Positions 8,068 to 25,550 of a stretch of 49,592 nucleotides of DNA are shown here, one piece after another. Within the stretch, counting starts at the first letter, position 1. Every line of letters starts with the position of its first letter. Source of the stretch: a bacterium (GTDB taxonomy: Bacteria > Patescibacteriota > Minisyncoccia > Minisyncoccales > CG1-02-41-26); contig JAGGVK010000018.1 in the NCBI GenBank assembly GCA_021158045.1, positions 1 to 49,592 of the forward strand. Direction: 5' to 3'. The position numbers and the translations under genes were made by a program. The notes under the pieces are model-generated. The model had not been told where the DNA came from and ran no database searches. It worked only from the letters and a program-made list of their open reading frames with translations.

Positions 8068-8110
8068 ATAAGAATATTATTATCTTTTTTTCTTTCTATG
8101 TCAACAACAC

Positions 8111-8194: not shown

Positions 8195-8280
8195 TTGAAT
8201 TCTAATATACGCAGATATATGTTTAAATTAAGATATTGGACAACACAAAGCCCAAACATCTCCATTCCTATTTTCACAAA

Positions 8281-8289
8281 TTATCCACA
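8281..8289 (+). promoter_or_regulatory. Perfect DnaA box TTATCCACA upstream of dnaA
   Basis: Exact consensus 9-mer in the rpmH-dnaA intergenic region. Confidence 0.5.
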
Positions 8290-8444
8290 GTTTTTAAACA
8301 AGCAAGCGTTCTTCTTGATTTTTCAAGGCATTTGCTATAGTCTATGTTCTAGAGGATAATATAAAAAGGCTTTTATCTCAGTTTTTAACTTTTAGAAACA
8401 AACTTCGTTTTATATATTTGGCTTATAAGTTTCAGCCACAATTT

Positions 8445-9818
8445 ATGACCAACGAAGAACTCTGGCAAGCAGTGCTTGCTCAAATCCAATTTCACTTATC
8501 CAAGGCGAATTTTTCCACCTGGTTCCGAAATACAAAAATCGTTTCTAAAAAAAACAACGAGATTACTGTTTCTGTGCCCAATGCTTTCTCTAAAGAATGG
8601 TTAGAAAAAAAATACAACAATCTCATACTTAAAGTTTTAAGAACAATAGATAAAAAAATAAGAAGAATTAATTATATCGTTAAAACAAAAGAACCTGAAT
8701 TAAAGGTAAAAACAAAAACAAAACTATCAAAAGAAGAAGAAAAAATAAAAACAAGCCAATTAAAACTTGAGAATTTTAAAATTAACCAAAAAACAAACCT
8801 TAACCCAAAATATACTTTTGACAATTTTATTGTTGGCGGCTTTAATGAATTAGCAAGAGCAGCGGCTTGGGCTATTTCTGAAAACCCTGGAATGGTTTAC
8901 AACCCCTTATTCATTTATGGCGGCGTTGGATTAGGGAAAACCCATCTTTTAGAAGCTACAGGGAATAGAATTTTAAAAAGAAACCAAAAAGCAAATATAC
9001 AATATATTCCTTCAGACAGATTTATTTCAAGCATAGTGCAAAGCATACAAAATCACACTATTGAGGACTTCAAAGGAAAACTCAGAAAACTTGATGTTTT
9101 GATTGTTGATGATATTCAATTTTTTAGCGGCAAAGAAAAAACCCAGGAGGTGTTTTTCCATATATTTAATGAGCTTTATGAAAAAAATAAACAAATAATC
9201 CTCTCTTCCGACAAGCCTCCAAAAGCCATTCCTGCTTTAGAGGAAAGGTTAAGGTCGAGGTTTGAAGGAGGAATGATTGCTGACATAGGATTGCCGGATA
9301 TCGAAACACGTATTGCTATTTTAAAATCAAAATGTGGAGAAAATAATATAAACTTGCCCCAGGAAGTGCTGGAGTACATTGCCACAAACATCCAAAAGAA
9401 TATCAGGGAGTTAGAAGGCGCCTTAAACAGAATAATAACTTTCGAGAGAATAAATAATATAACTCCAGACCTAAAAACTACAAAGAAACTTCTCAGAAAT
9501 TTAATAGCCTCACCTTCGCGAATAACGAGCTGGAAAAAAATTTTACAAACAGTTTCTGATTTTTATAATTTGAAAAGCAATACTCTTTTAGAGAAAAGCC
9601 GCCGGAAAGAAATTGTTAAAGCCCGCCAGATAGCTATGTATTTAGCAAGAGAAGAATTAAAGGAATCTTATCCATCTATAGGTAGGAAATTTGCCCAAAA
9701 AGACCATACAACTGTTATGTACGCATGCAAAAAAATATCGCAGCAGTTAGATGTAGACGATAATTTGGTAACTGAATTAAATTTAATTAAACAAAGGATT
9801 TACAATATATTAATCTAA
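8445..9818 (+). CDS. dnaA: Chromosomal replication initiator DnaA
   Basis: MTNEELWQAVLAQIQ N-terminus, Walker A GGVGLGKTHL, and a C-terminal DNA-binding region (RQIAMYLAREE...KDHTTVMYA). The ORF also extends to a TTG at 8418. Confidence 0.95.
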   Translation: MTNEELWQAVLAQIQFHLSKANFSTWFRNTKIVSKKNNEITVSVPNAFSKEWLEKKYNNLILKVLRTIDKKIRRINYIVKTKEPELKVKTKTKLSKEEEKIKTSQLKLENFKINQKTNLNPKYTFDNFIVGGFNELARAAAWAISENPGMVYNPLFIYGGVGLGKTHLLEATGNRILKRNQKANIQYIPSDRFISSIVQSIQNHTIEDFKGKLRKLDVLIVDDIQFFSGKEKTQEVFFHIFNELYEKNKQIILSSDKPPKAIPALEERLRSRFEGGMIADIGLPDIETRIAILKSKCGENNINLPQEVLEYIATNIQKNIRELEGALNRIITFERINNITPDLKTTKKLLRNLIASPSRITSWKKILQTVSDFYNLKSNTLLEKSRRKEIVKARQIAMYLAREELKESYPSIGRKFAQKDHTTVMYACKKISQQLDVDDNLVTELNLIKQRIYNILI

Positions 9819-10059
9819 AAATAAAAAGCTGAGGAAAAAAGGTTAAAAAACTGTGATTATCTTCTTTAAAAAATGGTATAAATATAATGGAAGAAATATT
9901 AAAAACCTCCATTCCTTTTTTCTCCAAAATTTATTAACAGAAAATTAACAAAAAAGAAAAAAAGAAAACGTTTAAATTATTAATTATTTGACACCCTTCC
10001 ACTTTTATTTACTTTCTCTTAATAATAATCTAAAATTAATAATATATAATATTAAATTT

Positions 10060-11193
10060 ATGAAAATTGAAATTTTAAGAGACAACCTAAAAGAAGCTTT
10101 AAATTGCTTAGAAAGAATTGCTAAGAAAAATTTAAGCTTGCCAATTTTAAATAATATCCTTTTATCCTGTGAAGGTAATTTCTTAAGATTAGATGCTACA
10201 AATCTTGAACTAAGCGTAAGCTGGTGGGTTTTATCAAAAGTAATAGATAAAGAAGGGAAAACAACGGTCCCAGCTGCCTTTTTCTCTAATCTTATCAATC
10301 TTTTAAGGGAAAAAAATATCAAAATAGAAAGTTCAGACAATAAAAATTTAATCCTTAAAACTATAAATCGTAAAATTCAAATTCAAGGGATGCCTCCCGA
10401 GGAATTTCCTATTATCCCCAAAATAAAGAGAGAGAATATTAATGAAATCTCAAGCGAAAAACTTCAAAAAGGAATAACCGAAGTTGTAGAAATTCCATCA
10501 TTATCCCAAATTAAACCAGAAATATCTGGATTATATTTCTTTTCTAAAAAAAACAAACTAAAAATTGTAGCAACTGACAGTTTTAGATTGGCTGAAAAGA
10601 CTATAAATTTAGACAGTAATTTCAAAAAAGAAGTTTCTTTCATCCTTCCCCAAGAGACTTCAAGGCAGTTAATAAGCATTTTAAGCCAAAACTTGTCAGA
10701 AAAAATAAATATTGTTTTATCACAAAACCAAATATTATTTGAGATACCTCAAAAGGAATTCTCTAAACCAAAAGTTCAAGTTTTTTCTCGCTTAATTGAT
10801 GGAGAATTTCCTAAATACCAAGAGATTATTCCTAAATCTTTTAAAACCAAACTTTTATTAGATAAAGAAGAGTTTCAGGAAAATTTAAAAGAGGCAGGGC
10901 TGTTTAGTGGAAGGGTTTCAGAGGTTAAATTAGAATCTTTTTCTAAGGAGAATAAATTAGGGTTATTTTCCCAAAGTTCTGAGTTTGGAAAAAACGAATC
11001 GTATATTCCTGCTAAAATAGAAGGAGAGGATATTAAGACATCTTTTAATTATAAGTTCCTTTTAGCAGGATTAGATAATATTGAGAGTTCTCAAGTAGTA
11101 TTAGAATTAAGCAATGAAGAAGGTCCAGGAGTTTTGAAACCGGTTGGGAGTGATGATTATTTCTATATACTAATGCCCATAAAAGCAAGTTAG
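10060..11193 (+). CDS. dnaN: DNA polymerase III beta sliding clamp
   Basis: MKIEILRDNLKEALN start, position after dnaA, typical length. The track ORF begins upstream at 9988, but the ATG at 10060 fits the family N-terminus. Confidence 0.9.
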   Translation: MKIEILRDNLKEALNCLERIAKKNLSLPILNNILLSCEGNFLRLDATNLELSVSWWVLSKVIDKEGKTTVPAAFFSNLINLLREKNIKIESSDNKNLILKTINRKIQIQGMPPEEFPIIPKIKRENINEISSEKLQKGITEVVEIPSLSQIKPEISGLYFFSKKNKLKIVATDSFRLAEKTINLDSNFKKEVSFILPQETSRQLISILSQNLSEKINIVLSQNQILFEIPQKEFSKPKVQVFSRLIDGEFPKYQEIIPKSFKTKLLLDKEEFQENLKEAGLFSGRVSEVKLESFSKENKLGLFSQSSEFGKNESYIPAKIEGEDIKTSFNYKFLLAGLDNIESSQVVLELSNEEGPGVLKPVGSDDYFYILMPIKAS

Positions 11194-11271
11194 TATAATA
11201 AATAATTATATAGGCAACACTTTTTAACTGTTATTCTAAATTTCCCTAACTATCATCCTGAACTTCCTTAT

Positions 11272-11568
11272 CTGTTATTCTGAGCCGTTAGGCGAAGAAC
11301 CCCCATGGCAAATCTCAAATCTCAAATCTCAAAATGACATCCATTTTTTGTCATTGCGAGGAGTCCCGCTGAAGGCGGGACGACGCGGCAATCTCATTAC
11401 TTCGTCATGGAATAACTACCAATTGTCATTCTGAGCCGTTAGGCGAAGAACCCCCATGGCAAATCTCAAATCTCAAATCTCAAATCTCAAAATCACAATT
11501 CAAAGTTCAAAATTTCTTTTAATTTTAGATTTTAGATTGTTATTTTTCATTTTTCGCTTTTCATTTTT
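11272..11568. repeat. Mosaic dispersed-repeat cluster 3
   Basis: Same modules as cluster 1, plus the AT-rich module AATTCAAAGTTCAAAATTTCTTTTAATTTTAGATTTTAGATTGTTATTTTTCATTTTTC. Confidence 0.9.
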
Positions 11569-11620
11569 AATTTAATTTAGCGCCTTACTTGCGCAATTAA
11601 TTGTAATATTTGTTTTAAAA

Positions 11621-13741
11621 TTATTTTTTCTCTTGGTTGAATTTTAAGACAGCGTATTCCCAATTTTTGAATTGGATATCATCCTTAGAATTTTCCTTTC
11701 CTAAAGGGTCTTTTTTGTTTAAATAATACAAAATACAATGCGGCTTTAAATTGTTTGTTTTTCCATTAAGAATAGGCTTCTCAACTAGTGTTTCTTTTGG
11801 TTTTTCAAAACTTTCTTTTTTGAAATTTTTTAAAGCAAATTCCATAAATTCGTGCCATATAGGACCAGCCAAAGTAACGCCTGGGCCTTTCATAGGAGCG
11901 TTGTTGTTATTTCCAATCCAAACACCAACAGAAATAGAAGGCGTATATCCGATTATCCAAGCATCATTGTATTTTTGAGTAGTGCCGGTTTTTACCGCTA
12001 CTTGATAACCTTTTATATATAATGGGGAATTTATGCCAAACATTGGCGCTCTTAAATTGTTACTTGAAAGAATTTGAGAAATTTCTCTAGCAACATTGCT
12101 TTCTAACACTTTAATGGAACTATTTTTTTCTTTGAATAAAATATTGCCTTTACTGTCTTCTATTTTATAAATAAAACGTGGAAAGGTTCGGTTGCCGTCT
12201 CTTCCAAAAACCCCATAAGCAGATGTTATATCTAAAAGCGTAACTTCTCCTCCACCCAAGACTAAAGACAAGCCGTATTTTAAGGGATTTTTTAAGGTGG
12301 TTATTCCTAAGTTTTTAGCAAGTTCTAAAGTATTTTTTTCTCCAGCTAAATATAATACTTTAACAGACGGCACATTTCGAGATTGGGCTAATGCCTCTTT
12401 AGCTTTAATCAACCCCTTAAACCTGCCGTCGTAATTTTTTGGATGATAGCATTTTATTCCGTATTTATCAGTAAGTTCTTCAGCAGAGGGGGAGCAGTTT
12501 GGGTTAAATTCTGTTTTTACGTCCCAAAGCAGTGTATTAGGAGTAAATCCTTTTTGGAGAAAGGTGGCATAAGCAAAAGGCTTAAAAGCAGAGCCCGGCT
12601 GGCGAAGGGAGGTGGTTATATTTACTTTAGGGTCAAACTTACAGCCTTCTTTACCACAATCTTCTGACTCTCCATACCAATTTTTTGAGCCAACTAAAGC
12701 TAAAACCTCTCCGTTTTTTGGGTTTAGAGCCACTAAAGCGCCATTATGGGCATCAAACCTCTTGTTGTATTTAACGCCTTCTTCTATAAGTTTTTCCGCC
12801 TTTTCCTGAAAATCCCAATTTAGAGTTGTGTAAACTTTTAACCCGGCTTTTTCCAAAAAATCCTTGCTATACATTTCTTCAAGTTTCCTTTTTACCATTA
12901 AAGAAAAGTGTGGCGCCTTAATAATATTGACATTTTTGAAAAATTTTATTTTTTCTTCGAGCGCTTCTTTTTCTTGAGATTCGGTGATATAACCAGCTTT
13001 TTTCATTCCTTTGAGAATGTAATTTTTTATTTGTTGAAGCCTTTCTAAATGCTCGCCATAAGGGGAAAGATATGAGGGAGAACGGATTAAAGCCGCCAAT
13101 ACAGCGCTTTCTGATAGAGATATGTCGGAAACTTTTTTATGAAAGAAAACTTCACTAGCTGTTTCTACTCCATAGATATTTCCTCCGAAAGGGATTATGT
13201 TTAAATACCATTCTAATATCTGCTCTTTCGTATATTTTCTTTCCAATTCTAAAGTTAAAATTACTTCTCTTGTTTTTCTTTTAAGAGTTTTATTTCTAGT
13301 TAAAAAATAGGACCTTATTAACTGCTGAGAAATTGTTGAACCGCCTTCTAACGGTTTTCCTAATTTTAAATCAGCCAATATTGCGCGCAGAATGGCTTTA
13401 AAATCTAAGCCCTTGTGTTGGTAGAAACTTTTGTCTTCTGCTGTTAAAACAGCTTCTCTTAATTTCATTGGTATTTGGCTTAAAGGAACTATTGTTCTTC
13501 TTTCTTTTCCTGAAATTTCGAGTAGGAGCGTTTTTCCAGTTCTGTCATAAACTTTTGTTGATTGGGGGATATCGCCTTCGGCGAATTTTTCTGGCCTTGG
13601 AAGGTCGTTTAGTGAATAAACTAAAAATAATACAAAGCCAAAAAATATAATTGCTAAAAAAACAAGGAATATTTTCAATAGAATCTTGAACCAATTCCTG
13701 TTTTTTTTATAGACAGTTTTATGATGGACTAATTTAGCCAT
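11621..13741 (-). CDS. Class A penicillin-binding protein (PBP1A-type transglycosylase/transpeptidase)
   Basis: N-terminal TM, glycosyltransferase motifs (EDKSFYQHKGLD, GGSTISQQL) and transpeptidase motifs (SAFKP, KTGTT). Confidence 0.9.
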   Translation of the reverse strand: MAKLVHHKTVYKKNRNWFKILLKIFLVFLAIIFFGFVLFLVYSLNDLPRPEKFAEGDIPQSTKVYDRTGKTLLLEISGKERRTIVPLSQIPMKLREAVLTAEDKSFYQHKGLDFKAILRAILADLKLGKPLEGGSTISQQLIRSYFLTRNKTLKRKTREVILTLELERKYTKEQILEWYLNIIPFGGNIYGVETASEVFFHKKVSDISLSESAVLAALIRSPSYLSPYGEHLERLQQIKNYILKGMKKAGYITESQEKEALEEKIKFFKNVNIIKAPHFSLMVKRKLEEMYSKDFLEKAGLKVYTTLNWDFQEKAEKLIEEGVKYNKRFDAHNGALVALNPKNGEVLALVGSKNWYGESEDCGKEGCKFDPKVNITTSLRQPGSAFKPFAYATFLQKGFTPNTLLWDVKTEFNPNCSPSAEELTDKYGIKCYHPKNYDGRFKGLIKAKEALAQSRNVPSVKVLYLAGEKNTLELAKNLGITTLKNPLKYGLSLVLGGGEVTLLDITSAYGVFGRDGNRTFPRFIYKIEDSKGNILFKEKNSSIKVLESNVAREISQILSSNNLRAPMFGINSPLYIKGYQVAVKTGTTQKYNDAWIIGYTPSISVGVWIGNNNNAPMKGPGVTLAGPIWHEFMEFALKNFKKESFEKPKETLVEKPILNGKTNNLKPHCILYYLNKKDPLGKENSKDDIQFKNWEYAVLKFNQEKK

Positions 13742-14191: not shown

Positions 14192-14364
14192 GTTGCTTAG
14201 CTAAGCTAAGCAACAAGCTAAGCAACAATGACGAAAAATAACCTATGGCCAAAATTCAAATCTCAAATCTCAAATCTCAAAATCACAATTCAAAATTCAA
14301 AATTTCTTTTAATTTTAGATTTTAGATTGTTATTTTTCATTTTTCATTTTTCACTTTTCATTTG
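14192..14364. repeat. Mosaic dispersed-repeat cluster 4 (hairpin GTTGCTTAGC/GCTAAGCAAC + heptamer run + AT-rich module), left flank of the island
   Basis: Same heptamer and AT-rich composite, in the same orientation, as at 25047-25165 and 25437-25550. Confidence 0.85.
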
Positions 14365-14844: not shown

Positions 14845-14882
14845 GGTGATTTTTTATTTCTAATCTCCTAAATTCAGAATAA
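14845..14882 (+). repeat. Direct repeat copy 1 (GGTGATTTTTTATTTCTAATCTCCTAAATTCAGAATAA) flanking the 100-aa ORF
   Basis: Near-identical to 15376-15412. A partial third copy (GGTGATTTTTTATTTT) lies at 19370-19385. Confidence 0.8.
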
Positions 14883-15003: not shown

Positions 15004-15306
15004 ATGGCAGAAGAAAATATCAAAAAAGTTTTAGAGGACTACAAAGAAGAAACTAATCGGCATTTTGATGTGGTGGCTGAGAATTTGGAAGATAAAATAA
15101 AACAAGTTGCTGAAGGAGTTACGCTTAACACAGAAAAATTACAAGAACACGATCGGAGATTTGACAAAATTGATGAAACCCTAGAAGTCATTAAAGTTGA
15201 TATTGAATTTATTAAACATGAACTTAAACAGAAAATTAATCGCGACGAATTTGCTATCTTAGAAAAAAGAGTGAGCATCCTTGAAGCAAAAGTGAATCGG
15301 CGGTAA
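15004..15306 (+). CDS. 100-aa coiled-coil protein
   Basis: Heptad-like charged sequence (EDKIKQVAEGV...FAILEKRVSILEAKVNRR). It is followed by a small hairpin CACCA-ttgt-TGGTG plus a T-run. No SD. An antisense ORF of equal length exists, so the strand is not certain. Confidence 0.5.
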   Translation: MAEENIKKVLEDYKEETNRHFDVVAENLEDKIKQVAEGVTLNTEKLQEHDRRFDKIDETLEVIKVDIEFIKHELKQKINRDEFAILEKRVSILEAKVNRR

Positions 15307-15375: not shown

Positions 15376-15412
15376 GGTGATTTTTTTATTTCTAATCTCC
15401 TAAATCCGGAAT
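15376..15412 (+). repeat. Direct repeat copy 2 (GGTGATTTTTTTATTTCTAATCTCCTAAATCCGGAATA)
   Basis: See 14845-14882. Confidence 0.8.
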
Positions 15413-15511
15413 AGCTTACGGAGGCCCGACCTCCGTAAAATGGCTTTGAAGACTGAAAAAGAGGTAGAAGGAGGAAGAATAATAGTAAACTCTTACCTCC
15501 TTCCTTATGTT

Positions 15512-15883
15512 TCAATCCTCGTCCCGGCGTTTAGCCGCAGGGTCGAGGTTTTCAAACTCTAGCTTTACCGCTCTTATCCTGTGGAACTTTTTGAAGCGAT
15601 AATATCTGCTAGCTGCTTCTACTTCTGATTTCTCTTCCGGTACAATTTCCATTTCTGCCCAGAGAGGATGAACTCCCATATCGCAAATCCGAGTAATAAT
15701 TGAGAGTGGAGCCACAATTACCATTTCATCGTATCCACCCTGCTTGAATATCTTTACTACTTCTTCTGCTGAAGCAAACGGATTCGGAACCTGTTCAATT
15801 TTAATCTCTCCGAAAATCCGCCTTAACTCCCTCTCTTGACTGGGAAGCCAAGGGTGCCTGCTCATCCATAAAATTTTTTTCAC
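15512..15883 (-). CDS. 123-aa protein of unknown family (last gene of the island array)
   Basis: GTG start with GGAGGG SD 7 nt upstream. No motif recognised. Confidence 0.65.
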   Translation of the reverse strand: MKKILWMSRHPWLPSQERELRRIFGEIKIEQVPNPFASAEEVVKIFKQGGYDEMVIVAPLSIITRICDMGVHPLWAEMEIVPEEKSEVEAASRYYRFKKFHRIRAVKLEFENLDPAAKRRDED

Positions 15884-16092: not shown

Positions 16093-19000
16093 TCAATCAT
16101 CACCTCCTTCTAACTTATTTTTAAGAGCTTGGAGTATTTCTTCGGTAACTTCGCCTTCTTTCTCAGAAGGTTCAGTTACTGGGTCACTGGAATCAGCTTT
16201 CTTTTTCGCTTCTTCCAGTTTCTGCTCCAATCCCCTTATTCGTTCCGCCTCCTCAGGAAATGGAGGCTCTAAATGCACTATCACCAATTTGAACCGAGAA
16301 CCACTTATTAACTCTCGACCCAAACTGCAATAGTACATCTTCCCCTCAACCGGCTGACTTCCCCAGCGGTCAACAATGTACTTCACGGTTAATTTACCGT
16401 CTTTAGTAATTGCCTCCCACTGGTCTTCGCCAGTTTTGGGATGTTTGCCCTTGGAGAATCGAAGCCGGATATAACCTTGCTGTTGAGCAATTTTTATGTC
16501 TTCCTCGTATTCTCTTTGGGCTTGCTCCAATTCCCTTTCTGTCCGTTTCAGCTTTACTGCTTCCGGGTTCAGAATCCGCTTGAAATCCTTGAATTCCAGG
16601 GAGTCAAATATCTCTCCTTCTGTCCAGCGACTATCGTCTAAATCGTAGTCAGTAAGTAAGTAGATCTCGCCTACCTCTCTCCGGCGAGAACCACAAGAAC
16701 AACGAAGTTCAGCTACCACTTTTCCGGTATCTGTAACAATTTGAGAAAGCACTGCTGCTTCAATCGGGTATCCTTCCTCATCATATTCAGGGAACTCAAT
16801 CCTTTCCAGCTCATGACTAGCTCTACATTCACCATCATCCATTTCTTTTCCGCAAAGAGGACAATGGGAATAGTGCTTAGCAATTGCCTGTTCAACTTTC
16901 CTTGTGCATTCCGCTCGTTTCTCTAGCAGTTTCTGCAACCCTTTCGTCTTCTCCGAACCCTCGTTAACCAGCTCTAAGGCTTTTTTAAAATTCTCCTTCC
17001 TTAGAGCTGCTTCGCTTTTCCGGATAAAGTTTTGGATATTCTCTTTCTCTTTATATTTAAGAAAGGTATTATCCTCAACTTCCTCCAGAAACTTCTGAAG
17101 GTTGGAGAGCTTTTTCTCCGCTTCCATTTTCAGTCTTTCCGGCTGGCGGATCAATTCTACCAAAACTGTCTCTTCTCCAACTTGAACTTTTAACTCTCTA
17201 ATTTTCTCCTCTTCTAGCAATTGATATTCATCAGCAGAGAAAGGATATAGTATCAGTCCTATCCCCGTAGCAACTTCCTTCTGGGTTTTCATTTGAGAAA
17301 TTTTTTCTAGTTTTTGGGGTGCCAGTTTTGATCCATAGAGAAATCCATCCTTTGTCACATAAAACCATTCCCAATCTGGTCTATCTTCTATTTTCCACCG
17401 TGCTTCTTCTGGCAGAGAAGCAATTTCAGGAAGAATATCTTTCCCCATTCTCCAACTATTTCTGCTCTGCCATTTCCCACTCAACAGTTCCTTCGCCTCA
17501 TTCCGTATCTGTTTCAGTTCTTCCGGGGTTAAGAGAGAAATTGCTTTTTCTCTTTTTTCCTGACTTAAGCATTTGTAGCAGAGTTTCCGTCCAGAAATTG
17601 GGGAAACAGTCGGGTAGGTTCCAGCTTTTCCACATCCTTCGCATTTCTCCTCCTGCCGGCAGAGATTACAGCGCTTATCCTTCCCCTTTGACTCATACCG
17701 CTGGCGTCCACATTTGCACAACGGAAACCATTCCTCAATTTGCGTCCTTACAACCTTGGGAAGTTTCTCAAGAGTTGTTTCTGTTTCCACCCATTTTTCG
17801 TTCCATCCGGATTTCAAAAGAGCTGAAATTCTGATAACCCATCCTGGATCCCAAACCGGGTCCAATCTGTGATTGTAGAACTCACTGCCATCGTATCGAT
17901 AACAATTCCATTCCAACGGATTCTCTTCCGCTACTATCTCTTTCGAAACCAATTTTTCCTTTCCTGTCCGACTCCACTCCAGACCATCTTTGTTATACTT
18001 TACTTTCTGTTTCTCTTCGCAAAGAAACTTCTTCTTGATGATCTGGACTTTCACTCCGGCTTCTGAAAGAACAACTTTGTATTCTTGTCGTTCCTCCGGA
18101 ACCTCTCGAGTCTCAAGTTTTACTTCTCTTGATCCGAGAGATTTTTCCGTACCATCATACTCAATGCGAACTGTACTAATTTCAACCGTATCCGTGTCCT
18201 CAGTCTCCGTTATCTGTTCTCTATATTTCGGTCCTGCTGGAATCGCACGCAGCCCCCTTCCCCGTTTAGCCAGAAATACCCGATAGGTTTTGCCTTTTTC
18301 AGGTTTCCAGCCATCTTGGGGAAAAACCGGCTTCCGTTCGTGCCAGGCAATAAGCCGCTCTTCCTTTTCAGTTGAACGACGCTCATCGCATTCAAAAGAA
18401 ACCTCATCAATTTCCATTAACTCGGCTTCCTCCGAACTCGGCTGGCCAAACCGGCCCTCTTTATCAACCGACTGGCAATGGAGAGTGTAAACTCTCATAC
18501 ACTCTTTTGAAAAAGCATCCATTGCCGTTTGAAAAGTTGCTTCGTCTTGATACTCAAATGGACGAAGCGACTTTCTAACTATAACTACCCCATGACGGAT
18601 TTCGTAATCATAGCCATACTGCCGGTCAATTTCTGCCTCTGGGAGAACCGAGGTCAACTCTTGCGCCAAGAAAGCCCGGATTCTATCCCCCCCATTGATG
18701 TGACCAGATTTAAGCTGGTCTTCACAATGAAGGAGAGTTAATCGACGGACTTCCTTTTCCACATCTGCCCAGGCCTGCTTCCAGTTTTCTTCAGAAGTAA
18801 ATTCCGTCTCAGCCAGGTGCCGCGTCAATTCCAATTCCTGTCCTTTGTGAGTCCGGTATTCAAAACCGCTCTGCCACTTGACCGTTGGGTCAATTACTTT
18901 GCCGAGCTTAACCTTTAGAGTTGGGCAAAGCGATCTGCCCCCATAATGTGTCAGTTCGAATATCACATCTGTAGTCGCCTCAAGAATATCCTTAATCTCA

Positions 19001-19314
19001 GCCATTCCATTTACAACCCGAACACCTTTTCCAGTTGTTACCCGCAGAACTGCTGCCAGAGCATGGGCCTTAAAGAACTCCACAGCAGATTTTACATTTT
19101 CCGCTTTCAGAGTTTTCCTTCCCTTTCTTTCTCCACCCACGATAAAGAAATACATTGGGTGGATGATTTGACAGTCCGATTCCAGTTCACCAATATCCTC
19201 CACCTCATTCTCCAGCCTGAAACCGTAACCGGTCAGGCCTTTGAAAAAGGTGGCTGCTGGCAATGACCTATAAAGGTCAATTGCCTCTTTCAATCCCTTA
19301 CGCACTTTTTCCAT
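16093..19314 (-). CDS. 1073-aa protein of unknown family with two zinc-ribbon clusters and coiled-coil segments
   Basis: AGGAGG SD 6 nt upstream of the ATG. Cys clusters are CKC..CNLC..CEGC..CYKC (aa 533-582) and HCPLC..C..H..CSC (aa 817-874). Acidic C-terminal tail. Confidence 0.85.
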   Translation of the reverse strand: MEKVRKGLKEAIDLYRSLPAATFFKGLTGYGFRLENEVEDIGELESDCQIIHPMYFFIVGGERKGRKTLKAENVKSAVEFFKAHALAAVLRVTTGKGVRVVNGMAEIKDILEATTDVIFELTHYGGRSLCPTLKVKLGKVIDPTVKWQSGFEYRTHKGQELELTRHLAETEFTSEENWKQAWADVEKEVRRLTLLHCEDQLKSGHINGGDRIRAFLAQELTSVLPEAEIDRQYGYDYEIRHGVVIVRKSLRPFEYQDEATFQTAMDAFSKECMRVYTLHCQSVDKEGRFGQPSSEEAELMEIDEVSFECDERRSTEKEERLIAWHERKPVFPQDGWKPEKGKTYRVFLAKRGRGLRAIPAGPKYREQITETEDTDTVEISTVRIEYDGTEKSLGSREVKLETREVPEERQEYKVVLSEAGVKVQIIKKKFLCEEKQKVKYNKDGLEWSRTGKEKLVSKEIVAEENPLEWNCYRYDGSEFYNHRLDPVWDPGWVIRISALLKSGWNEKWVETETTLEKLPKVVRTQIEEWFPLCKCGRQRYESKGKDKRCNLCRQEEKCEGCGKAGTYPTVSPISGRKLCYKCLSQEKREKAISLLTPEELKQIRNEAKELLSGKWQSRNSWRMGKDILPEIASLPEEARWKIEDRPDWEWFYVTKDGFLYGSKLAPQKLEKISQMKTQKEVATGIGLILYPFSADEYQLLEEEKIRELKVQVGEETVLVELIRQPERLKMEAEKKLSNLQKFLEEVEDNTFLKYKEKENIQNFIRKSEAALRKENFKKALELVNEGSEKTKGLQKLLEKRAECTRKVEQAIAKHYSHCPLCGKEMDDGECRASHELERIEFPEYDEEGYPIEAAVLSQIVTDTGKVVAELRCSCGSRRREVGEIYLLTDYDLDDSRWTEGEIFDSLEFKDFKRILNPEAVKLKRTERELEQAQREYEEDIKIAQQQGYIRLRFSKGKHPKTGEDQWEAITKDGKLTVKYIVDRWGSQPVEGKMYYCSLGRELISGSRFKLVIVHLEPPFPEEAERIRGLEQKLEEAKKKADSSDPVTEPSEKEGEVTEEILQALKNKLEGGDD

Positions 19315-19577
19315 CTTTTCCCTCCTTTCCCGAAATTCGGGATTGCTCGTCTGTGCCAGACGGACAAAAGGTGATTTTTTATTTTTTAAAGTGCCTTCTG
19401 AACCTGAAGTTCAGGTTTTAGGCTATGTTTTTTACAGACCAAAATCTGAATTCCAGGAAAATTTGGTTAGAGGGAGAAGAAAGTGCAAGCTCTTCTCCCT
19501 CTTTTATTTTTATTTTACGAGTGCGGCCCTTTTGTTTTTTACGGCCAGCCAAGGGCAATGCTGGCTAACCGGTTCGG
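19315..19577. repeat. Island intergenic cassette, copy B
   Basis: CTGAAC-ctgaa-GTTCAG (19398-19414), the block GACCAAAATCTGAATTCCA, a 12-bp perfect hairpin AGAGGGAGAAGA/TCTTCTCCCTCT (19469-19502) plus a T-rich tail, and the hairpin CCAGC..GCTGG. Confidence 0.75.
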
Positions 19578-21182
19578 TCAGACTTTACCAAAGACCTCAC
19601 CGGCTTCCTCCGAGTTCAGCTCCGAGACCAGAACAATCTCATCGCTGAACTCTTTTGCTGCCGCACGACTCGAGCTACCAACGTCAACAAGAACTGTCAC
19701 TACTTGAACTTCTTCTTTCCTCTTGAATTCCTGAAACTGCTCTCGAAACGAATCCGACACCGCGCATTCCCCATCGGTCACAAAACAGATATCAGCCCGC
19801 GGTAACTTTCCGGACTCCACAATTTCTTGTGCTTTCCCGAGTGGTTTTTCAAAATCCGTACCGCCACCCAGAAAGAATTCTGCCATCTGAATCAGTTTCT
19901 TGTAATTCGCTTCTCCTGTGCGAATCCAAAACTCCTTTATCGGGTCATCTCTGCTTCCGAACATCAGGTAGACGAAGTCGCGTCGTTTTGACTTGGAAAC
20001 TTGCCACAATCCAAGTGCCACCGCTTTCGCCCAAATCTCTTTCGCGCCTTCCATTGAGCCAGAATTATCAATTCCTACGATAATCGGTCCCTCACCCAGT
20101 TTCTCCTTCCGCTCCACTTCGTATTGCAACAACTGCTGATTAGCGAATTTCCGCAAGAATTCCATTTTCAGTACAGGATGAGCTAAGAATTGCATTTCTG
20201 AAGGAATAACCTTATCCAAGTCATTTCCCCGACGAACATTGACTACCATTCCAGCTGGAGCTTGGATTTTCTCTTTCTGTCGCGCAATTGCGAGCCGTCT
20301 GAACTTCCCTAAGAGTTTGGAAATCTGTTTTAGTTTTGAAGACGATTCCAGTTTCTTTTTCAATTCCAGTTTCTGTTCATAATCCAGTTTCTGTATTTCA
20401 CCCGGTTCTACTCCCCAGGATTCCAACATTTCACTCGTTTCCTTCGCATTCTCCGCTGCTTCTTTTGCTGCTTTCCGCATTCCTCTCCGGAACTGTTCCG
20501 AATTCTGCTGTAAGTCCTGTTCCAGTCCATCTGCCATCTGTTCCAACTGCTGTTTTGCCTCATCAAGCGTCATTTGGGCTTGAGAGGTCTGTTGTCCGAG
20601 AGAATTCGCCTGCTGTTGCATCTGTTGTGCCTGTTGCTGCAGCTGTTGAGCTTGAGTTCCAGTTGCAGTCTGCGCCTGTTGTTGTAAGTCATCTGCCTGT
20701 CCCTGCGCTGCTTCTGCTTGCTGTTGCAAATCCTGTGTCTGCTGCTGCAACTGCTGGCTCTTCTGCTCTTGTTGCTGTAGCTGCTGAATTTTCTGTTTTG
20801 TCTCTTCTGGAATCAGTTCCAACGCTACTGGTCCGAGGGTAAGAGTTGCCATCGCAGAACCAAATTCGTCCAGTTCAGTATACTGCCGTAACTCTGGATA
20901 CTGCTTCGTGGCCAATAACTTTTCCATCAGCATCCGATTAACCCGTCGCGAAGGAACCACTGCCCCTGCTTTCCGCAGTTGGGGATCCGCTTTGTAGAGC
21001 GCTGAGTAGATATCTTGTATCAAATCCGAAAATACCGGTAGAGTTTGAATTCCATTTCGTTCCATTTCCACCAACTTTTCCGACTTCTGTTTCAACTGGG
21101 AAAATGCTGCCCGATCATATCTGTCACAGCGGATTGCCCAAGGGAATTGCTGGATTTCTTCCTCTCTTCTTTTCATTTTCAT
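19578..21182 (-). CDS. ViaA-like von Willebrand factor A (vWA) protein with a Gln-rich central insert
   Basis: C-terminal vWA with an intact MIDAS (IVGIDNSGSM ... GGGTDF ... FVTDGE). The linker QQLLQYEV preceding the vWA resembles ViaA KQLLTYRL. The GGAGG SD overlaps the end of the upstream AAA+ gene. Confidence 0.85.
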   Translation of the reverse strand: MKMKRREEEIQQFPWAIRCDRYDRAAFSQLKQKSEKLVEMERNGIQTLPVFSDLIQDIYSALYKADPQLRKAGAVVPSRRVNRMLMEKLLATKQYPELRQYTELDEFGSAMATLTLGPVALELIPEETKQKIQQLQQQEQKSQQLQQQTQDLQQQAEAAQGQADDLQQQAQTATGTQAQQLQQQAQQMQQQANSLGQQTSQAQMTLDEAKQQLEQMADGLEQDLQQNSEQFRRGMRKAAKEAAENAKETSEMLESWGVEPGEIQKLDYEQKLELKKKLESSSKLKQISKLLGKFRRLAIARQKEKIQAPAGMVVNVRRGNDLDKVIPSEMQFLAHPVLKMEFLRKFANQQLLQYEVERKEKLGEGPIIVGIDNSGSMEGAKEIWAKAVALGLWQVSKSKRRDFVYLMFGSRDDPIKEFWIRTGEANYKKLIQMAEFFLGGGTDFEKPLGKAQEIVESGKLPRADICFVTDGECAVSDSFREQFQEFKRKEEVQVVTVLVDVGSSSRAAAKEFSDEIVLVSELNSEEAGEVFGKV

Positions 21183-21194
21183 CTTCCGCCTCCT

Positions 21195-22364
21195 TTAGAG
21201 TTCAATCCCAAGGCATTCTTTAACCACATCCCGGAGGTACCGTTCCACCGCATCCTTCACATCCTCAATTTTCCCAGTAGGTGCACCAGCCCGCTTCGCC
21301 TCATCCAGAAGATTTACCACATTCGTTCGGATGTTTTTGAGTTTTGCATTTGCCTCAGTTCCTAATTTGGATTTTCTGCTCTCATCCTGTTCACCGAGTG
21401 CCTCATCACGGATTTCCGTTGCTGTATCCAGAAGTTCTTGAGCCCGAAGTGCTAAAGGATTTGCCACCTCCAATACGACATCCCTGACTTTCCGAATATC
21501 CTTTTGCTCATCCCACAAGCAGTGCTGAAGCATCAGCAGGTCTTCCTCTTCCACTTTCTGCCTGTCTTCCAGTAACGCGTGCGCTTGCAATACTAGGTTC
21601 AGTCGGACATCCCTACGGCCATAGACAACAATCCCTTGGTCATAGAGTTTTTCAATAATTTCCTCTACTTTTTCGTCTATGGTTTCCGGGACTTCAACTT
21701 CCACCACCTGCTGTTGCAACTGTTGGAGTTCTGTAAGAGAAATTTTGGGAGCATCGAACTTTCCTTTCGGATCGCCTTTCCTCCGCAGATACGATAACTG
21801 CCTCATCCGAATCCTTTCGGACTTTTCCTTTATCCGTCCTACTACGAATCGGAACATAAACCGGTCGTAGAACGCCTCCAAATCTTCTTCTGGAGCATTG
21901 TTCGTTGCCCCGAAAAGAGAAATTAGAGGGCAGTCCAGTTGGCGTCCTTTTAGTGTCCATTTCCGTTCGTTAATCAACAGCAATAAAGCGTTCAAGGTAG
22001 CCGGATTGCAACGGAAGATTTCCTCCAATACGGCAATGTGTGCCTGCTGGAGCATTCCTTCGCCGCGTGGAGTAATCTCAATCCTTTTTCTGCCGTCACC
22101 GAGATCCTGTTCAACATAGTCCCTATCCGAAACGAACAAGTCATCTGGAACAGTGTCCTGTGCGAGTAGGTGTTTGAAGTAGGTCACTCCATCCAAGGTC
22201 CGGCACAGCAGCTCTATCAACATACTTTTCGCTTCCCCCGGAGGGCCAAATAATATGCCGTGCTGCTTTGACAGCAAAGCACATATTAGCCCCCGGATGA
22301 CTTCCTTTCTTCCTACCAAGAGACGGTTCAGTTCCGTCTCTATTCTCTTCATTTTTTCAATCAT
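21195..22364 (-). CDS. RavA/MoxR-family AAA+ ATPase
   Basis: Walker A GPPGEAKS, Walker B IAVLEEIF, sensor GATN, DRFMFR. The LLMLQHCLWDEQKD segment parallels RavA LILLKDCLWYDAQS. I prefer the ATG at 22364 (AAGGAGG 5 nt upstream) over the track start at 22391. Confidence 0.9.
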   Translation of the reverse strand: MIEKMKRIETELNRLLVGRKEVIRGLICALLSKQHGILFGPPGEAKSMLIELLCRTLDGVTYFKHLLAQDTVPDDLFVSDRDYVEQDLGDGRKRIEITPRGEGMLQQAHIAVLEEIFRCNPATLNALLLLINERKWTLKGRQLDCPLISLFGATNNAPEEDLEAFYDRFMFRFVVGRIKEKSERIRMRQLSYLRRKGDPKGKFDAPKISLTELQQLQQQVVEVEVPETIDEKVEEIIEKLYDQGIVVYGRRDVRLNLVLQAHALLEDRQKVEEEDLLMLQHCLWDEQKDIRKVRDVVLEVANPLALRAQELLDTATEIRDEALGEQDESRKSKLGTEANAKLKNIRTNVVNLLDEAKRAGAPTGKIEDVKDAVERYLRDVVKECLGIEL

Positions 22365-22500
22365 TCTTTCCTCCTTTCCGGCATCTTTCATCTTTGCCGG
22401 TTCTCATTTTTTTAAGGTTCCTCTCTGATAACCCAGAGAGAATACTGAGGGCAAAATTTTCGTCCCCAATATTCTCCCAAGGTTTCTTATAAAAAAGAGA

Positions 22501-22547: not shown

Positions 22548-22865
22548 CTAATCGATTAAGTCACCGGGGCGGTACTTATCGCCGTGAGAAACGGCGACAA
22601 CATACCTTCCCAGTTTGGGGTCAAACACCGCCACCACCTCGTAGAGGTGGACCACCGCGTGCCCAATCGCGATGGCAACTGGGAGACTCGCCGGCCCGTT
22701 TATCTTAATCAGGGAGCCGCCGGCAAGCTCACCTGATTTGACCATCTCGTCCAGACGCGCAACCGCGTCACGGACGATTTGGTCATTTTGAGCCGGGTCG
22801 CCAAACCCGACCCTCAACACATCGCCCTCTTCGAGGGTAATGTGATAAGTTTTTTCTTTAGCCAT
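22548..22865 (-). CDS. csx3: Csx3-family protein (CRISPR-associated cA4 ring nuclease, Crn3 type), orphan
   Basis: LIKINGPASLPVAIAIGHAVVHLYEVVAVFDPKLGRYVVAVSHGDKYRPGDLID matches my recollection of the A. fulgidus Csx3 core (VVISGRGPIWLHCFLAHKYHHTPFVAVYDPRLGAVVVQSHSELREGDVID). AAGGAGGG SD before the ATG at 22865. Confidence 0.7.
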   Translation of the reverse strand: MAKEKTYHITLEEGDVLRVGFGDPAQNDQIVRDAVARLDEMVKSGELAGGSLIKINGPASLPVAIAIGHAVVHLYEVVAVFDPKLGRYVVAVSHGDKYRPGDLID

Positions 22866-22992
22866 TTTTACCCTCCTTATGTTCACCCAGAATAAAATGG
22901 CAAATTCTGGACTAAGGGATTGTTAGTTTAAGCCTCTTTTTCAGCCCCCTATGGTTTATTTTTACATCGTCTCCAATCGACGATGGGCAAAA

Positions 22993-23586
22993 TTACTTTT
23001 CCTCGGCGGTTGCCATCCGCACGAGGAATTGGGCAAGTGCGACCACACAGGGTCGCTGGCTCACATCCTCACCTCTTTCAAGGTAATGGATGGAGCCTCT
23101 AAAGATACCGTCCTTGCCCACACCATGAACGGTATCTTCCTGGCCATGATAATCGCTGAAAATTTCAGCGATTATCTTTAACCCGAGTTCTGAACAAAAC
23201 GCTCTCCACTCGGGTACCTTATCCATGTCACCAGCCAGGATGATGGCATGGGTGGCGGTTTTGCAAATTTTTTTATTTTCCACTGATGGAATACCGCCAA
23301 TATCCACCAGAGTGAGCGGGAGTTGACAGTTGACGACTGAGTCTGCCACCCGCTTGACAAACTCAGGAGAAAACCCACTTAAGGAGGCCTTATATTCCTC
23401 CTTTAAGCGGCGGGCTTCCTCGGGCGACCGGTTTGCAGTCTCTTGAAACCAGGCGCCCTCGCCGTCCGGGCACGCCGTAATTACGTAGGGATACGGCGCC
23501 CCCGGAATTCTTTTGATTGCCTGCTTCAATCCCTCTCGCAGGCAACTCTTCCCGCTACGTGGCGGGCCACAGAGCACAATTTTCAT
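22993..23586 (-). CDS. 197-aa P-loop NTPase, operonic with csx3
   Basis: Walker A GPPRSGKS at the N-terminus. Walker B/DxxG LTLVDIGG. GGAGGTG SD 8 nt upstream. Confidence 0.75.
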   Translation of the reverse strand: MKIVLCGPPRSGKSCLREGLKQAIKRIPGAPYPYVITACPDGEGAWFQETANRSPEEARRLKEEYKASLSGFSPEFVKRVADSVVNCQLPLTLVDIGGIPSVENKKICKTATHAIILAGDMDKVPEWRAFCSELGLKIIAEIFSDYHGQEDTVHGVGKDGIFRGSIHYLERGEDVSQRPCVVALAQFLVRMATAEEK

Positions 23587-24136
23587 TGTGCTCTCACCTC
23601 CTTTGCCCGCCTGCGCGGGCTTTTTTTATTCTCCTTTTTTTTAGCAAGGAGTGCACCGTGCACTTTCAACCAATCGCTTACTTTTGGACAGCAAGTGTTG
23701 GCTGGCGCGTCCGCCAATGAAAGTGCACGGGCGCACTCATTACTAAGGTTGAGAGAGGTGGAGGCAACCGAAACTGACCTTCCATCTCCTCGATGTGATA
23801 GGTTAACCTCAGTTGTATCTCACTTTTTACCCCTGATTGTCACAAAACCTGTATTTTAAAGAGCTAATTCTCTCCTCTTGGGAGAAGGATAGAGAAGAAC
23901 ATTTTTATCTGTTTGATGTAGATGATTGTTTGGCTGGCTAACAAACAGTCAGGATAGCCTAATTCGAGCCTTATTCTCCCTCCTCTATCCTTCTCCCCTG
24001 AACCAATCTTTGCTCTAGTTCAGCAGGAGGAAGAGGTTATTTATATTGTTAAAAGGGCTAAATAATAGGCGACTCTCAGAGAGAGTCGCCTATTGCAGCA
24101 TTTCTACAATTTCGCTCTCTCCTCGAAACTTGATAA
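23587..24136 (-). promoter_or_regulatory. ~550-nt structured leader or ncRNA region between the tandem promoters and the P-loop gene
   Basis: No credible ORF. It holds a 13-bp hairpin (24064-24094), a CTGAAC..GTTCAG hairpin (23998-24023) and a 15-bp long-range stem (23880-23894 / 23983-23997). It also holds two AGTGCAC-type palindromes (23650-23664, 23722-23737) and the GC hairpin GCCCGC-ctgc-GCGGGC (23605-23620). Confidence 0.5.
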
Positions 24137-24142
24137 TATTTA

Positions 24143-24302
24143 ATTGTAGTATATTTTCGGGATTTTGTCAAGGTATTCTCTATATGTCTGTCCTTTTTCT
24201 AAGTACCTCTATTATAATACATTCAAATTTCCTTGTCAATAGTTTATTTTTATTTCTCTTCTAAAGCACTCTGATTATAGCATATTTAATTTTGTTTGTC
24301 AA
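24143..24302 (-). promoter_or_regulatory. Three tandem near-consensus sigma70 promoters reading leftward
   Basis: On the minus strand: TTGACA(24302-24297)-17nt-TATAAT(24279-24274), TTGACA(24239-24234)-17nt-TATAAT(24216-24211) and TTGACA(24171-24166)-17nt-TACAAT(24148-24143). Confidence 0.55.
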
Positions 24303-24875: not shown

Positions 24876-25550
24876 CCAAAATCTCAAATCTCAAATCTCA
24901 AATCTCAAAATGACATCTCAAAATGCAAAATTAGAAAATTCAAAATGCAAATTTAGAAAAGCAAAATCTCAAATCTCAAAATGACCCTGAAGCAGAACAA
25001 GTTCGCTACAGGGCAGGCAGTATTGCTTACCCTGGGTAAGCAATAGGAATCTCAAACCTCAAATCTCAAATCTCAAAATGACAATTCAAAGTTCAAAATT
25101 TCTTTTAATTTTAGATTTTAGATTGTTATTTTTCATTTTTCACTTTTCATTTTTAATTTTTCATTGCCTTGCGAGGAGTCCTGCTGAAGGCGGGACGACG
25201 CGGCAATCTCAGGATTGCAGTAATAGGAGGAAGGGATTGCTTCGTCAGTCGCTTCGCTCCTTCCTCGCAATGACAGGGGAATGGAATCGTTTCACTCAGG
25301 ATGACAGTGAGGATAAAATAAAAAAGACAAGGACTTTTTAAATGACGAAACCCGAATGACGAATGACGAAAAAATGTTATCAACGAGACCCGGACTCGTT
25401 GTCGTTCTGAGCCGTTAGGCGAAGAATCCCAGCCAAAATGCAAATCTCAAATCTCAAATCTCAAAATGACAATTCAAAGTTCAAAATTTCTTTTAATTTT
25501 AGATTTTAGATTGTTATTTTTCATTTTTCACTTTTCATTTTTCATTTTTT
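24876..25550. repeat. Mosaic dispersed-repeat cluster 5 (largest), right flank of the island
   Basis: All module types are present. The heptamer and AT-rich composite occurs twice (25047-25165, 25437-25550). The GAAGCGACTGACGAAGCAATC module is in inverted orientation at 25235-25275. Confidence 0.9.

Follow-up and report, generated by a model that had tools for sequence, protein, structure and literature searches.

The window analysed here is a stretch of 49,592 nt, positions 1 to 49,592 of contig JAGGVK010000018.1 (assembly GCA_021158045.1; Patescibacteriota, Minisyncoccia), and our subject is a gene in it that encodes a protein of 1073 amino acids (aa), together with the group of genes to which it belongs. 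This group occupies an island: the content of guanine and cytosine (GC) is 42-50% across 16-24 kb, compared to 28-39% in the adjoining DNA (8-16 kb and 24-36 kb), a shift that bears out the term 'island' used in a preceding sequence-only reading of this DNA. All island genes are located on the minus strand, in the transcription order P-loop ATPase, Csx3, MoxR, vWA, spacer, 1073-aa protein and 123-aa protein. From upstream to downstream the island comprises:

24143-24239, minus strand: two sigma-70-type consensus promoters, arranged in tandem ahead of the first island gene (hexamer matches 12/12 and 11/12)
22993-23586, minus strand: P-loop ATPase, 197 aa (PADLOC Csx3-AAA, 1.6e-59)
22548-22886, minus strand: Csx3 domain protein, 112 aa (PADLOC Csx3, 5e-27; Pfam Cas_csx3, 24.5 bits at a cut-off of 21)
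21195-22391, minus strand: MoxR-class AAA+ ATPase, 398 aa (PF20030 bpMoxR, 2e-33)
19578-21182, minus strand: vWA protein, 534 aa (phrog_24053, 2e-88), with an intact metal-ion-dependent adhesion site (MIDAS)
19315-19577, minus strand: structured spacer or leader of 263 nt between the vWA gene and the 1073-aa gene (z -5.63)
16093-19314, minus strand: gene of the 1073-aa protein (open reading frame and translation)
15512-15883, minus strand: small protein, 123 aa, with orthologues in related loci

The promoters at 24143-24239 are the only consensus ones found for the island genes, and a scan for terminator-like sites on the minus strand within the island gave nothing. The sequence-only reading had described the 1073-aa gene as co-transcribed behind the MoxR-vWA pair. 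The common strand and the lack of minus-strand terminators make co-transcription of the island genes, including this one, plausible, although the strongly structured spacer of 263 nt separates the gene from vWA.

The 1073-aa protein (124 kDa, pI 5.8) begins with an ATG codon, and the ribosome-binding site GGAAAGGAGGG lies 5 nt upstream. Because its highest 19-residue hydropathy is only 1.0, the protein is considered soluble and devoid of a transmembrane helix. Its parts, with their frequencies among 125 relatives according to an iterated hidden Markov model (HMM), are:

18430-19314, minus strand: N-terminal alpha+beta domain, aa 1-295 (full-length subfamily only; internal duplication; invariant FELTHYGGRS)
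17770-18429, minus strand: start of the core, with a small barrel of five strands at aa 296-362 and a beta sheet of long strands at aa 363-515 (113/125 relatives)
17569-17718, minus strand: putative double zinc ribbon with eight Cys, aa 533-582 (Cys 80-99% conserved)
16870-17544, minus strand: helical region of aa 591-815, with which the shared core ends (104/125 relatives)
16693-16866, minus strand: second Cys/His cluster, aa 817-874, in the variable C-terminal module (module in 23/125 relatives)
16096-16476, minus strand: C-terminal beta module (aa 947-1018), helices and a tail ending in EEILQALKNKLEGGDD (module in 6/125 relatives)

The eight cysteines of the double ribbon (C533, C535, C549, C552, C558, C561, C579 and C582) are conserved better than anything else in the family, and with 80-99% conservation across 119 members they are no chance cluster. 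Next to them R539 is conserved at 99%, and G536 and R537 are conserved too. Residues and bases of the ribbon are exactly as they had been read from the sequence. With its paired CxxC/CxC knuckles kept across the relatives, this segment appears to fit zinc-ribbon proteins; Pfam zinc-ribbon matches in family members are weak and scattered, and the region has a low predicted local distance difference test score (pLDDT) in the AlphaFold model. The segment that holds the ribbon (aa 516-590; net charge +9, pI 9.3) is the most basic long segment of the protein. The second Cys/His cluster has the layout H817-C818-P-L-C821-x8-C830-x3-H834 ... C872-S-C874. It is present as proposed, but its nucleotide end is 16866 instead of 16863 (a slip of 3 nt), and its final CSC is not conserved, being replaced by CYSG in family member P0002 and by FLSG in P0003. 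The long helical stretches and the beta-rich C-terminal module with an acidic tail, which had also been predicted, reappear in the full-length model as helices 702-714, 726-746, 754-772, 776-814 and 917-945, and as a small beta module (948-1014) with the end ...LEGGDD.

No match to the protein was obtained in Pfam (no family at E<=0.1), PHROGs, PADLOC or the PDB sequences, and for these curated libraries the earlier label 'family-less' holds; a rare but real family exists, however, in metagenomes. A word-indexed search of 5.8 billion proteins returned ten relatives, all of them metagenomic. A profile of aa 1-590, compared with 1.84 billion cluster representatives, recovered two groups: full-length members, about 22 in number (E < 1e-150), and some 95 shorter relatives of 450-910 aa, which match only profile positions ~330-600. 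The matching segment sits at the N-termini of these shorter proteins, and the core is all that they share with the full-length ones. The iterated HMM finds the shared core (barrel, sheet, zinc ribbon and helical region; aa ~296-815) in 104-117 of the 125 sequences and the N-terminal domain in 30. Past residue ~600 the relatives align poorly, and their C-terminal modules differ: the window-type module with the second Cys cluster occurs in 23/125, the window-type end in 6/125. Among 185,579 species representatives a protein with the N-terminal domain is present in only two, both Patescibacteria (one of them a Saccharibacteria metagenome-assembled genome, MAG), and the core-only member KKS93535.1 derives from a Parcubacteria MAG. 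All named sources of the family are Patescibacteria and none is viral; no relative was found among 2.9 million viral contigs. Our data thus reveal a genuine, conserved, rare and undescribed family. Truncated or split forms of the gene also exist: in locus L010 it is divided into two consecutive open reading frames of 631 and 373 aa (10001-11896 and 11921-13042), and in L017, from a Patescibacteria genome, it is cut down to the N-terminal domain and the barrel (407 aa, 7977-9200), behind MoxR-vWA.

For the comparison of gene neighbourhoods 31 loci (L numbers) were gathered and duplicates collapsed, which left 13 distinct full-length loci including the window; an alignment in which full-length and core-only proteins were combined proved too diverse to serve in a metagenome locus scan. 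The vWA gene lies directly upstream of the 1073-aa gene or its homologue in all 12 full-length loci with at least 0.8 kb of upstream flank, and in all 11 whose flank reaches at least 3 kb MoxR precedes vWA. The order MoxR-vWA-big protein was thus found in the window, L001, L004, L005, L008, L009, L010, L017, L018, L020 and L023, and L028 shows vWA-big protein. Among the six core-only loci five (L013, L015, L029, L030 and L031) have the order MoxR-vWA-X, so that the family is linked to MoxR and vWA genes in its short form as well. The triad is retained even in L004, L009 and L018, whose MoxR proteins are only 23-25% identical to that of the window.

Within the triad the big protein is the fastest-evolving component in all five pairs compared, with 35-55% identity where MoxR shows 50-88%. 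Identities for MoxR, vWA and big protein are 88/81/55% between L001 and L005, 76/70/37% between L001 and L008, 73/71/44% between L004 and L009, 78/76/49% between L018 and L004, and 50/45/35% between the window and L001. The vWA protein is not notably faster than MoxR. The sequence-only reading had suggested the variable partner of a vWA-MoxR ternary system, and this is supported by the fixed synteny, the faster divergence and the mosaic C-terminal half: a protein that outpaces MoxR and vWA in divergence and changes its C-terminal modules fits the part of a variable partner.

Since the big protein is nearly always encoded directly after MoxR and vWA, it is likely to be a third subunit of the same system. 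With moderate confidence we consider it the third, fast-evolving subunit of a Patescibacteria-specific MoxR-vWA ternary system, which has been acquired here on a GC-rich island and whose most likely role is in defence or conflict rather than in housekeeping. The basis for this is the fixed synteny, the co-divergence, the rate asymmetry, the mosaic architecture, the island context and the lack of a housekeeping or enzymatic match. The island context is typical of defence loci, with its GC shift and with toxin-antitoxin, recombinase, PIN and Fic genes beside the relatives.

The partner proteins are those expected of such a system. The best Pfam match of MoxR is PF20030 (bpMoxR clade), and it also matches AAA_5 (4e-18), AAA_lid_8 (2e-14) and a PHROG family (7.5e-66). 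Its P-loop reads GPPGEAKS; a pattern scan did not find the canonical hhhh[DE]E Walker B, and LEE in IAVLEEIF was read by eye. In the vWA protein a Gln-rich coiled coil precedes the C-terminal vWA domain (aa 363-534), in which the MIDAS is intact (DNSGS at 372, T at 442, D at 470); the Pfam VWA_CoxE match is weak, and orthologues were found in all loci. Because the vWA domain ends the protein, it carries neither a fused effector nor a propeller. Within the window island only the Csx3 domain could count as an effector.

Ternary vWA-MoxR systems have been divided into the types VMAP, iSTAND, FtsH and beta-propeller (Kaur, Burroughs, Iyer, Aravind 2020, eLife; PMC7159879). The VMAP type resembles the window locus in its three co-inherited genes (a MoxR AAA+ protein, a MIDAS vWA protein and a large third protein with conserved and variable parts), in its fast-evolving non-ATPase components and in its mobile, patchy loci, and Csx3 has been recorded among the effector domains of such systems (PMC7159879). 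In contrast to the window, the third protein of this type carries a VMAP-C or VMAP-M domain, neither of which is detected by Pfam in the 1073-aa protein, its vWA bears a C-terminal effector array, its gene order is VMAP-MoxR-vWA as opposed to MoxR-vWA-third component in all loci of our family, and its hosts are actinobacteria, cyanobacteria and other multicellular forms. The iSTAND type needs an inactive STAND NTPase as third protein, and neither Pfam nor fold searches provide a P-loop or STAND match for ours. In its MoxR the window locus resembles the beta-propeller and FtsH types: the protein matches bpMoxR, and its P-loop, with an Ala before the Lys, is close to the GxxxTAKS variant reported for the MoxR of these two types (Kaur et al. 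2020; PMC7159879), Glu standing in place of Thr; no conventional effector module is visible in either case. On the other side, the propeller of the beta-propeller type is fused to vWA, the third component there has TPR, propeller or membrane segments, whereas the 1073-aa protein gave no repeat-domain match and has no transmembrane segment, and FtsH and ubiquitin-like conjugation genes are absent. Because the defining third components are not matched, membership in any of the four types fails, and the system lies outside all of them. What is claimed here is that it works like a ternary system, not that it is a VMAP system.

The only experimental support so far for a conflict role of such pairs comes from the Esr pathway of Actinomycetales, in which MoxR-vWA-linked sensing modules mediate threat responses (bioRxiv 2026, PMC13622651). 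The likeness lies in a variable sensing protein that signals via a conserved MoxR-vWA pair; Esr differs in its surface filamentous beta-propeller proteins, its kinase/phosphatase pair and its FHA proteins, none of which is present here, and the 1073-aa protein appears to be cytoplasmic.

The pairs NorQ/NorD, CbbQ/CbbO, RavA/ViaA and CoxD/CoxE are likewise built from an AAA+ hexamer and a vWA adaptor and serve an adjacently encoded, dedicated protein, which the adaptor of these housekeeping pairs binds through its MIDAS; maturation of metal sites is a common theme among them. This points to another explanation, with NorQ/NorD, CoxD/CoxE, CbbQ/CbbO and the chelatases as analogues: the big protein would be a client, and MoxR-vWA a maturation or metal-insertion chaperone that loads or folds its eight-Cys zinc site, or assembles a larger complex, for an ordinary cell function. 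Each of the MoxR-vWA pairs characterised outside conflict systems acts on a single dedicated client encoded next to it, several of them by metal insertion (PMC9976466, PMC13036017), the eight Cys are what the family conserves best, and the vWA protein has no effector domain. The clients of housekeeping pairs are, however, conserved enzymes with known folds, and slow evolution and an enzymatic fold that can be recognised would be expected of a client, whereas here the gene of the 1073-aa protein varies most within the triad, and the protein has a mosaic C-terminus and no known fold. No characterised housekeeping family was found for it by sequence or by fold. A locus on a GC-deviant, Csx3-bearing island, with a patchy distribution (2/185,579 species representatives) and with Csx3-type genes and toxin-antitoxin neighbours as travelling companions, is also at odds with an ordinary cell function, and we regard the client explanation as unlikely.

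The structural data bear on whether the big protein might itself be an enzyme. The full-length AlphaFold model (11 sequences) has a mean pLDDT of 71.8, with high values over 1-460 and 590-810, and places strands at 301-359 (barrel) and 363-513 (sheet). For the N-terminal domain alone (23 sequences) pLDDT is 86.4 and the predicted template modelling score (pTM) 0.81. This domain consists of successive units of a helix and a long beta strand, and its aa 4-37 align with aa 70-103 (hhalign probability 94.8%, E 5e-8), an ancient duplication. The two copies end in Gly-rich turns (LTGYG and TTGKG), and a third turn contains the invariant FELTHYGGRS; Y15, T28, G31, P53, G60, E120, H123, G125, G126 and W147 are invariant.

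Despite this confident N-terminal model, a Foldseek comparison found nothing significant, the best PDB E-value being 0.034 (ARPC2, urate oxidase; template modelling score, TM, about 0.2). The full-length model gave nothing at E<=0.001 against PDB and BFVD, with top matches at TM below 0.1, and PDB profile searches with the alignments of the N-terminal domain and of this domain plus core gave chance matches only. In agreement with the earlier remark that no enzymatic motif can be recognised, the 1073-aa protein shows no recognisable catalytic fold and no Pfam or PADLOC domain. Several resemblances were followed up. The N-terminal domain approaches type III secretion chaperones (SycT, SycH, ExsC, VecA) over ~110 residues, with probabilities up to 0.77 and TM up to 0.44, which we rate as a resemblance in shape and not as homology; this class I chaperone-like shape is a lead to a possible peptide-binding, non-catalytic role. 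Identification with Sua5/YrdC/YciO (PF01300) was rejected: the matches are sub-threshold in 5/23 members (best E 0.0025), the window sequence has none, and no such chain appears in the PDB profile search or in Foldseek. The barrel (aa 296-362) gave a single weak match to TRAM (PF01938) in one of 22 members (E 0.16) and no fold match, so that 'TRAM-like' describes a resemblance and is a lead only.

Against this background one may suppose that the big protein is an enzyme-effector or signal generator with a new fold, in which the N-terminal domain (E120, H123, GG, R127, S128) makes or processes a nucleotide or RNA, and Csx3, Csx15, HD and PHP proteins degrade the product. The invariant polar residues in the Gly-rich hairpin turns (TGYG, TTGKG, THYGGRS) would suit such a function, as would the recurrence of ring-nuclease-type domains with no cyclase, cas gene or CRISPR array nearby and the sub-threshold Sua5/YrdC matches. 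Several observations disagree: there is no acidic metal-binding pair after the GG motif, Foldseek reports no polymerase, cyclase, nuclease or YrdC fold in spite of the confident model, the profile search of PDB sequences is empty, and about 95 relatives that have no N-terminal domain are still found behind MoxR-vWA, some of them together with Csx3. We therefore give the enzyme explanation little credit.

The accessory genes repeatedly include a P-loop ATPase and Csx3, which occur in 7/11 full-length loci and in two core-only loci. This upstream pair and the downstream 123-aa gene had been overlooked by the sequence-only reading as recurrent members of the locus. Aligned to Csx3 of A. fulgidus (AF_1864), the window protein keeps H57, H60, D69 and H80, and carries Lys instead of R71; it thus retains the His, Asp and His positions that are catalytic in Csx3/Crn3 of type III CRISPR systems (PMC7371418, PMC12409355). 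A P-loop ATPase of the island's kind has been noted in type III CRISPR loci as 'sometimes fused to Crn3' (PMC7371418, PMC12409355). Unlike type III loci, with Cas10, other cas genes or an array nearby, the window has Csx3 and the ATPase as separate genes and carries no repeat of CRISPR-like period in its 49.6 kb; PADLOC found no cas gene in the island or in ten other large open reading frames of the window, and the flanks of related loci show none either. Separate genes for Csx3 and the ATPase are found in the window, L010, L015, L018, L023 and L030, fusions of the two in L001, L008 and L017. Since the five other loci show the same two separate genes (60-83% identity), the split in the window is genuine.

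Further proteins recur as well. A protein of 115-123 aa is present in the window, L015, L018, L029 and L031, with orthologues 46-52% identical and no match for the window's 123-aa protein in Pfam, PADLOC or PDB, and a domain of ~90 aa ('X') is found in related loci, alone or fused to other genes. In L008 a ring-nuclease-type domain of the Csx15 kind (5e-8) forms part of a 281-aa protein, and an HD_4 phosphohydrolase is encoded as well (2165-3010 and 5851-6447); L015 encodes a PHP phosphoesterase (3237-4094). The Csx15 domain is the sole PADLOC match among the accessory proteins of related loci, where no cyclase or other defence domain was found. Toxin-antitoxin, PIN, Fic, patatin and recombinase genes (a serine recombinase among them) are frequent beside the relatives.

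The same vWA architecture (N-terminal region, coiled coil, C-terminal vWA domain) is present at 31-39% identity in two jumbo phages, each with an adjacent MoxR-type ATPase: Bacillus phage 0305phi8-36 (gp66/gp63; L012, 6189-9611) and Moorella phage MTATph1 (L011, 6874-9452). There the pair stands amid replication and nucleotide-metabolism genes and is bare, with no relative of the big protein. One could accordingly see in the island the remnant of a virus or mobile element, and in the big protein one of its structural or replication-associated proteins, which a MoxR-vWA pair of viral type would assemble. Pairs of this type have been proposed to act in the tail growth of archaeal viruses and are seen in jumbo phages, homologues of our pair exist in the two phages named, vWA and MoxR match PHROG families at 2e-88 and 7.5e-66, and the GC-deviant island is situated between 116-nt direct repeats. 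Nevertheless, both phages lack the big protein, a tblastn search of 50,697 phage records gave no match to it, the viral contigs contain no relative, BFVD provides no fold match, and neither the island nor the related loci contain capsid, terminase, integrase or other phage genes; the related loci are flanked by ordinary chromosomal genes. A viral or mobile-element remnant is very improbable in our view.

The flanks of the island are formed by housekeeping genes: dnaA, dnaN, a class A penicillin-binding protein gene, ruvC, yebC, ruvB and uvrB. Every named close homologue of the window RuvB comes from Patescibacteria (Parcubacteria, Nealsonbacteria, Pacebacteria, Gribaldobacteria). As dnaA and dnaN (8418-11193) are only ~5 kb away, the island lies near the probable replication origin of a Patescibacteria chromosome. 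The 116-nt direct repeat that brackets the island (14248-14363, 25044-25159 and 25432-25547; 90-96% identical) is rich in the heptamers CAAATCT and TTTTCAT. Because similar heptamer arrays occur elsewhere in the window (3915-4225 and 11224-11573), the repeat is better seen as a genome-wide intergenic element; it is a possible recombination or insertion site. A 32-nt repeat (14850-14881 and 15382-15413; 94% identical) surrounds a plus-strand open reading frame (15004-15306) just outside the island, which encodes a 100-aa coiled coil with no family match.

At the opposite end of the island a third sigma-70-type promoter was spotted by eye at ~24274-24302 on the minus strand. Between the promoters and the P-loop ATPase gene extends a GC-rich leader of ~550 nt that holds no open reading frame (23587-24302 region, minus strand), and a GCCCGC/GCGGGC hairpin directly adjoins the ribosome-binding site of this gene. 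Neither sequence nor coding conservation of the leader was found in comparison to related loci.

The spacer in front of the 1073-aa gene in the window has a minimum free energy of -84.2 kcal/mol (z -5.63; none of 200 shuffles as stable) and forms several long hairpins. Spacers of 190-240 nt occupy the same position between vWA and the big gene in several relatives. In nine related loci we found a two-tier RNA hairpin of ~38 nt, situated 15-60 nt upstream of the start codon of the big gene:

L004, 9928-9975: leader hairpin
L008, 9938-9986: leader hairpin
L009, 6056-6104: leader hairpin
L010, 9924-9972: leader hairpin
L017, 7917-7965: leader hairpin
L018, 7857-7904: leader hairpin
L020, 6085-6133: leader hairpin
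L026, 87-134: leader hairpin
L028, 696-744: leader hairpin

It consists of an outer and an inner stem of 6 bp each, a GYGAGA loop and a 3' bulge NNNATYTA. Of the alignment cells 95.4% are paired, compared to 71.9% in shuffles (0/500 reach this value), compensatory changes occur in 8 of the 12 pairs, and controls slid along the sequence pair at 26-48%. With a covariance model each training locus yields exactly one copy and the rest of the 296 kb none, and Rfam detects no family in these loci except one tRNA at the end of L009. The window itself has no copy: the best match in its leader reaches 6.3 bits (E 4.6), and its spacer is not homologous to the leader hairpin of the related loci. Downstream of the system in L017, at ~9.9-10.4 kb, two intergenic hammerhead-like cores (CUGAUGAGUCC...GACGAAAGGG) were noticed, which correspond to no Rfam ribozyme at gathering thresholds.

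Most family members end in a short, basic, Ala/Leu-rich peptide such as ...TAMAxALRKAGL, ...LxALRxKFGGR or ...DLSRLFGG. A strict form of this pattern (L-x-A-L-[RK]-x-K-[FW]-G-G or A-M-R-K-A-G-L) is present in 35 of 107 tails, compared to 0.28 expected from internal windows, and the tail of the window protein (EEILQALKNKLEGGDD; aa 1054-1073, nt 16096-16155) is a loose acidic variant of it. About ten members end instead in a zinc ribbon of the form GNRHFKC...C..CG..G.VKK. Many tails resemble the membrane-targeting sequence of E. coli MinD, KGFLKRLFGG. A MinD-like membrane-targeting helix was nevertheless rejected: by hydrophobic moment the tails do not stand apart from internal windows (p 0.098), and that of the window protein is acidic. 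A beta-clamp-binding motif was considered for tails of the DLSRLFGG type and dismissed too. The tail could equally be a handle that is recognised by vWA or MoxR.

How a third subunit of this kind, be it a sensor, an effector or a scaffold, might work can be outlined by analogy to the characterised MoxR-vWA pairs and to the ternary conflict systems of Kaur et al. (2020). The vWA protein would grip an exposed peptide of the big protein via its MIDAS, and the MoxR hexamer would spend ATP to remodel or release the big protein, which would thereby be flipped between a latent and an active state. The likeliest surfaces for sensing or target binding would be the variable C-terminal modules and the basic zinc ribbon, for which nucleic acid would be a reasonable ligand. 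The P-loop ATPase and Csx3 suggest an output or shut-off that may be coupled to a cyclic-oligoadenylate-like nucleotide or to RNA.

Several points weigh against a ternary conflict system. No PADLOC model matches MoxR or the big protein, vWA has no fused effector, and no recognisable toxin is present in the window island. The MoxR-vWA subfamily exists as a bare pair among jumbo-phage replication genes, which means that the pair can serve other clients. One core-only locus, L016 (P0031, 5330-9728), has a classical AAA ATPase (AAA + AAA_lid_3), DUF1257, DUF2997 and a small radical SAM protein in place of the usual partners, a hint that another ATPase can be coupled to the core. Moreover, Patescibacteria are unicellular. 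The ternary systems described so far are enriched in multicellular bacteria, and Patescibacteria are not among the clades listed for them (PMC7159879).

A bolder form of the conflict hypothesis, a long shot in our estimation, would combine most of these elements in an immune pathway of Patescibacteria that relies on nucleotide signals and is independent of CRISPR. Its sensor for invaders would be the big protein, by means of the variable C-terminus and the basic zinc ribbon; MoxR-vWA would license this protein, and either it or an unrecognised partner would make or answer a cyclic-oligoadenylate-like signal that is cleared by Csx3, Csx15, HD and PHP proteins. The duplicated N-terminal domain would then represent a new nucleotide-handling or peptide-clamping fold, and the leader hairpin of the related loci an autoregulatory site for the protein's own zinc ribbon.

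The MoxR-vWA ternary systems, a large class of predicted immune machines of prokaryotes, are almost entirely uncharacterised, and so far they are known mainly from multicellular bacteria. If the 1073-aa protein is the third subunit of such a system, the locus adds a fifth kind of third component, whose folds match nothing solved, and extends ternary-type systems to the Patescibacteria, episymbionts with reduced genomes about whose defences little is known. The repeated pairing of Csx3-type (and once Csx15-type) ring-nuclease domains with a system that has no CRISPR-Cas genes is unexpected, and provides a handle on the unexplained 'Csx3-AAA' proteins. The near-invariant eight-Cys site, the short conserved C-terminal tail and the covarying 5' leader hairpin of the relatives offer experimental access to the family.

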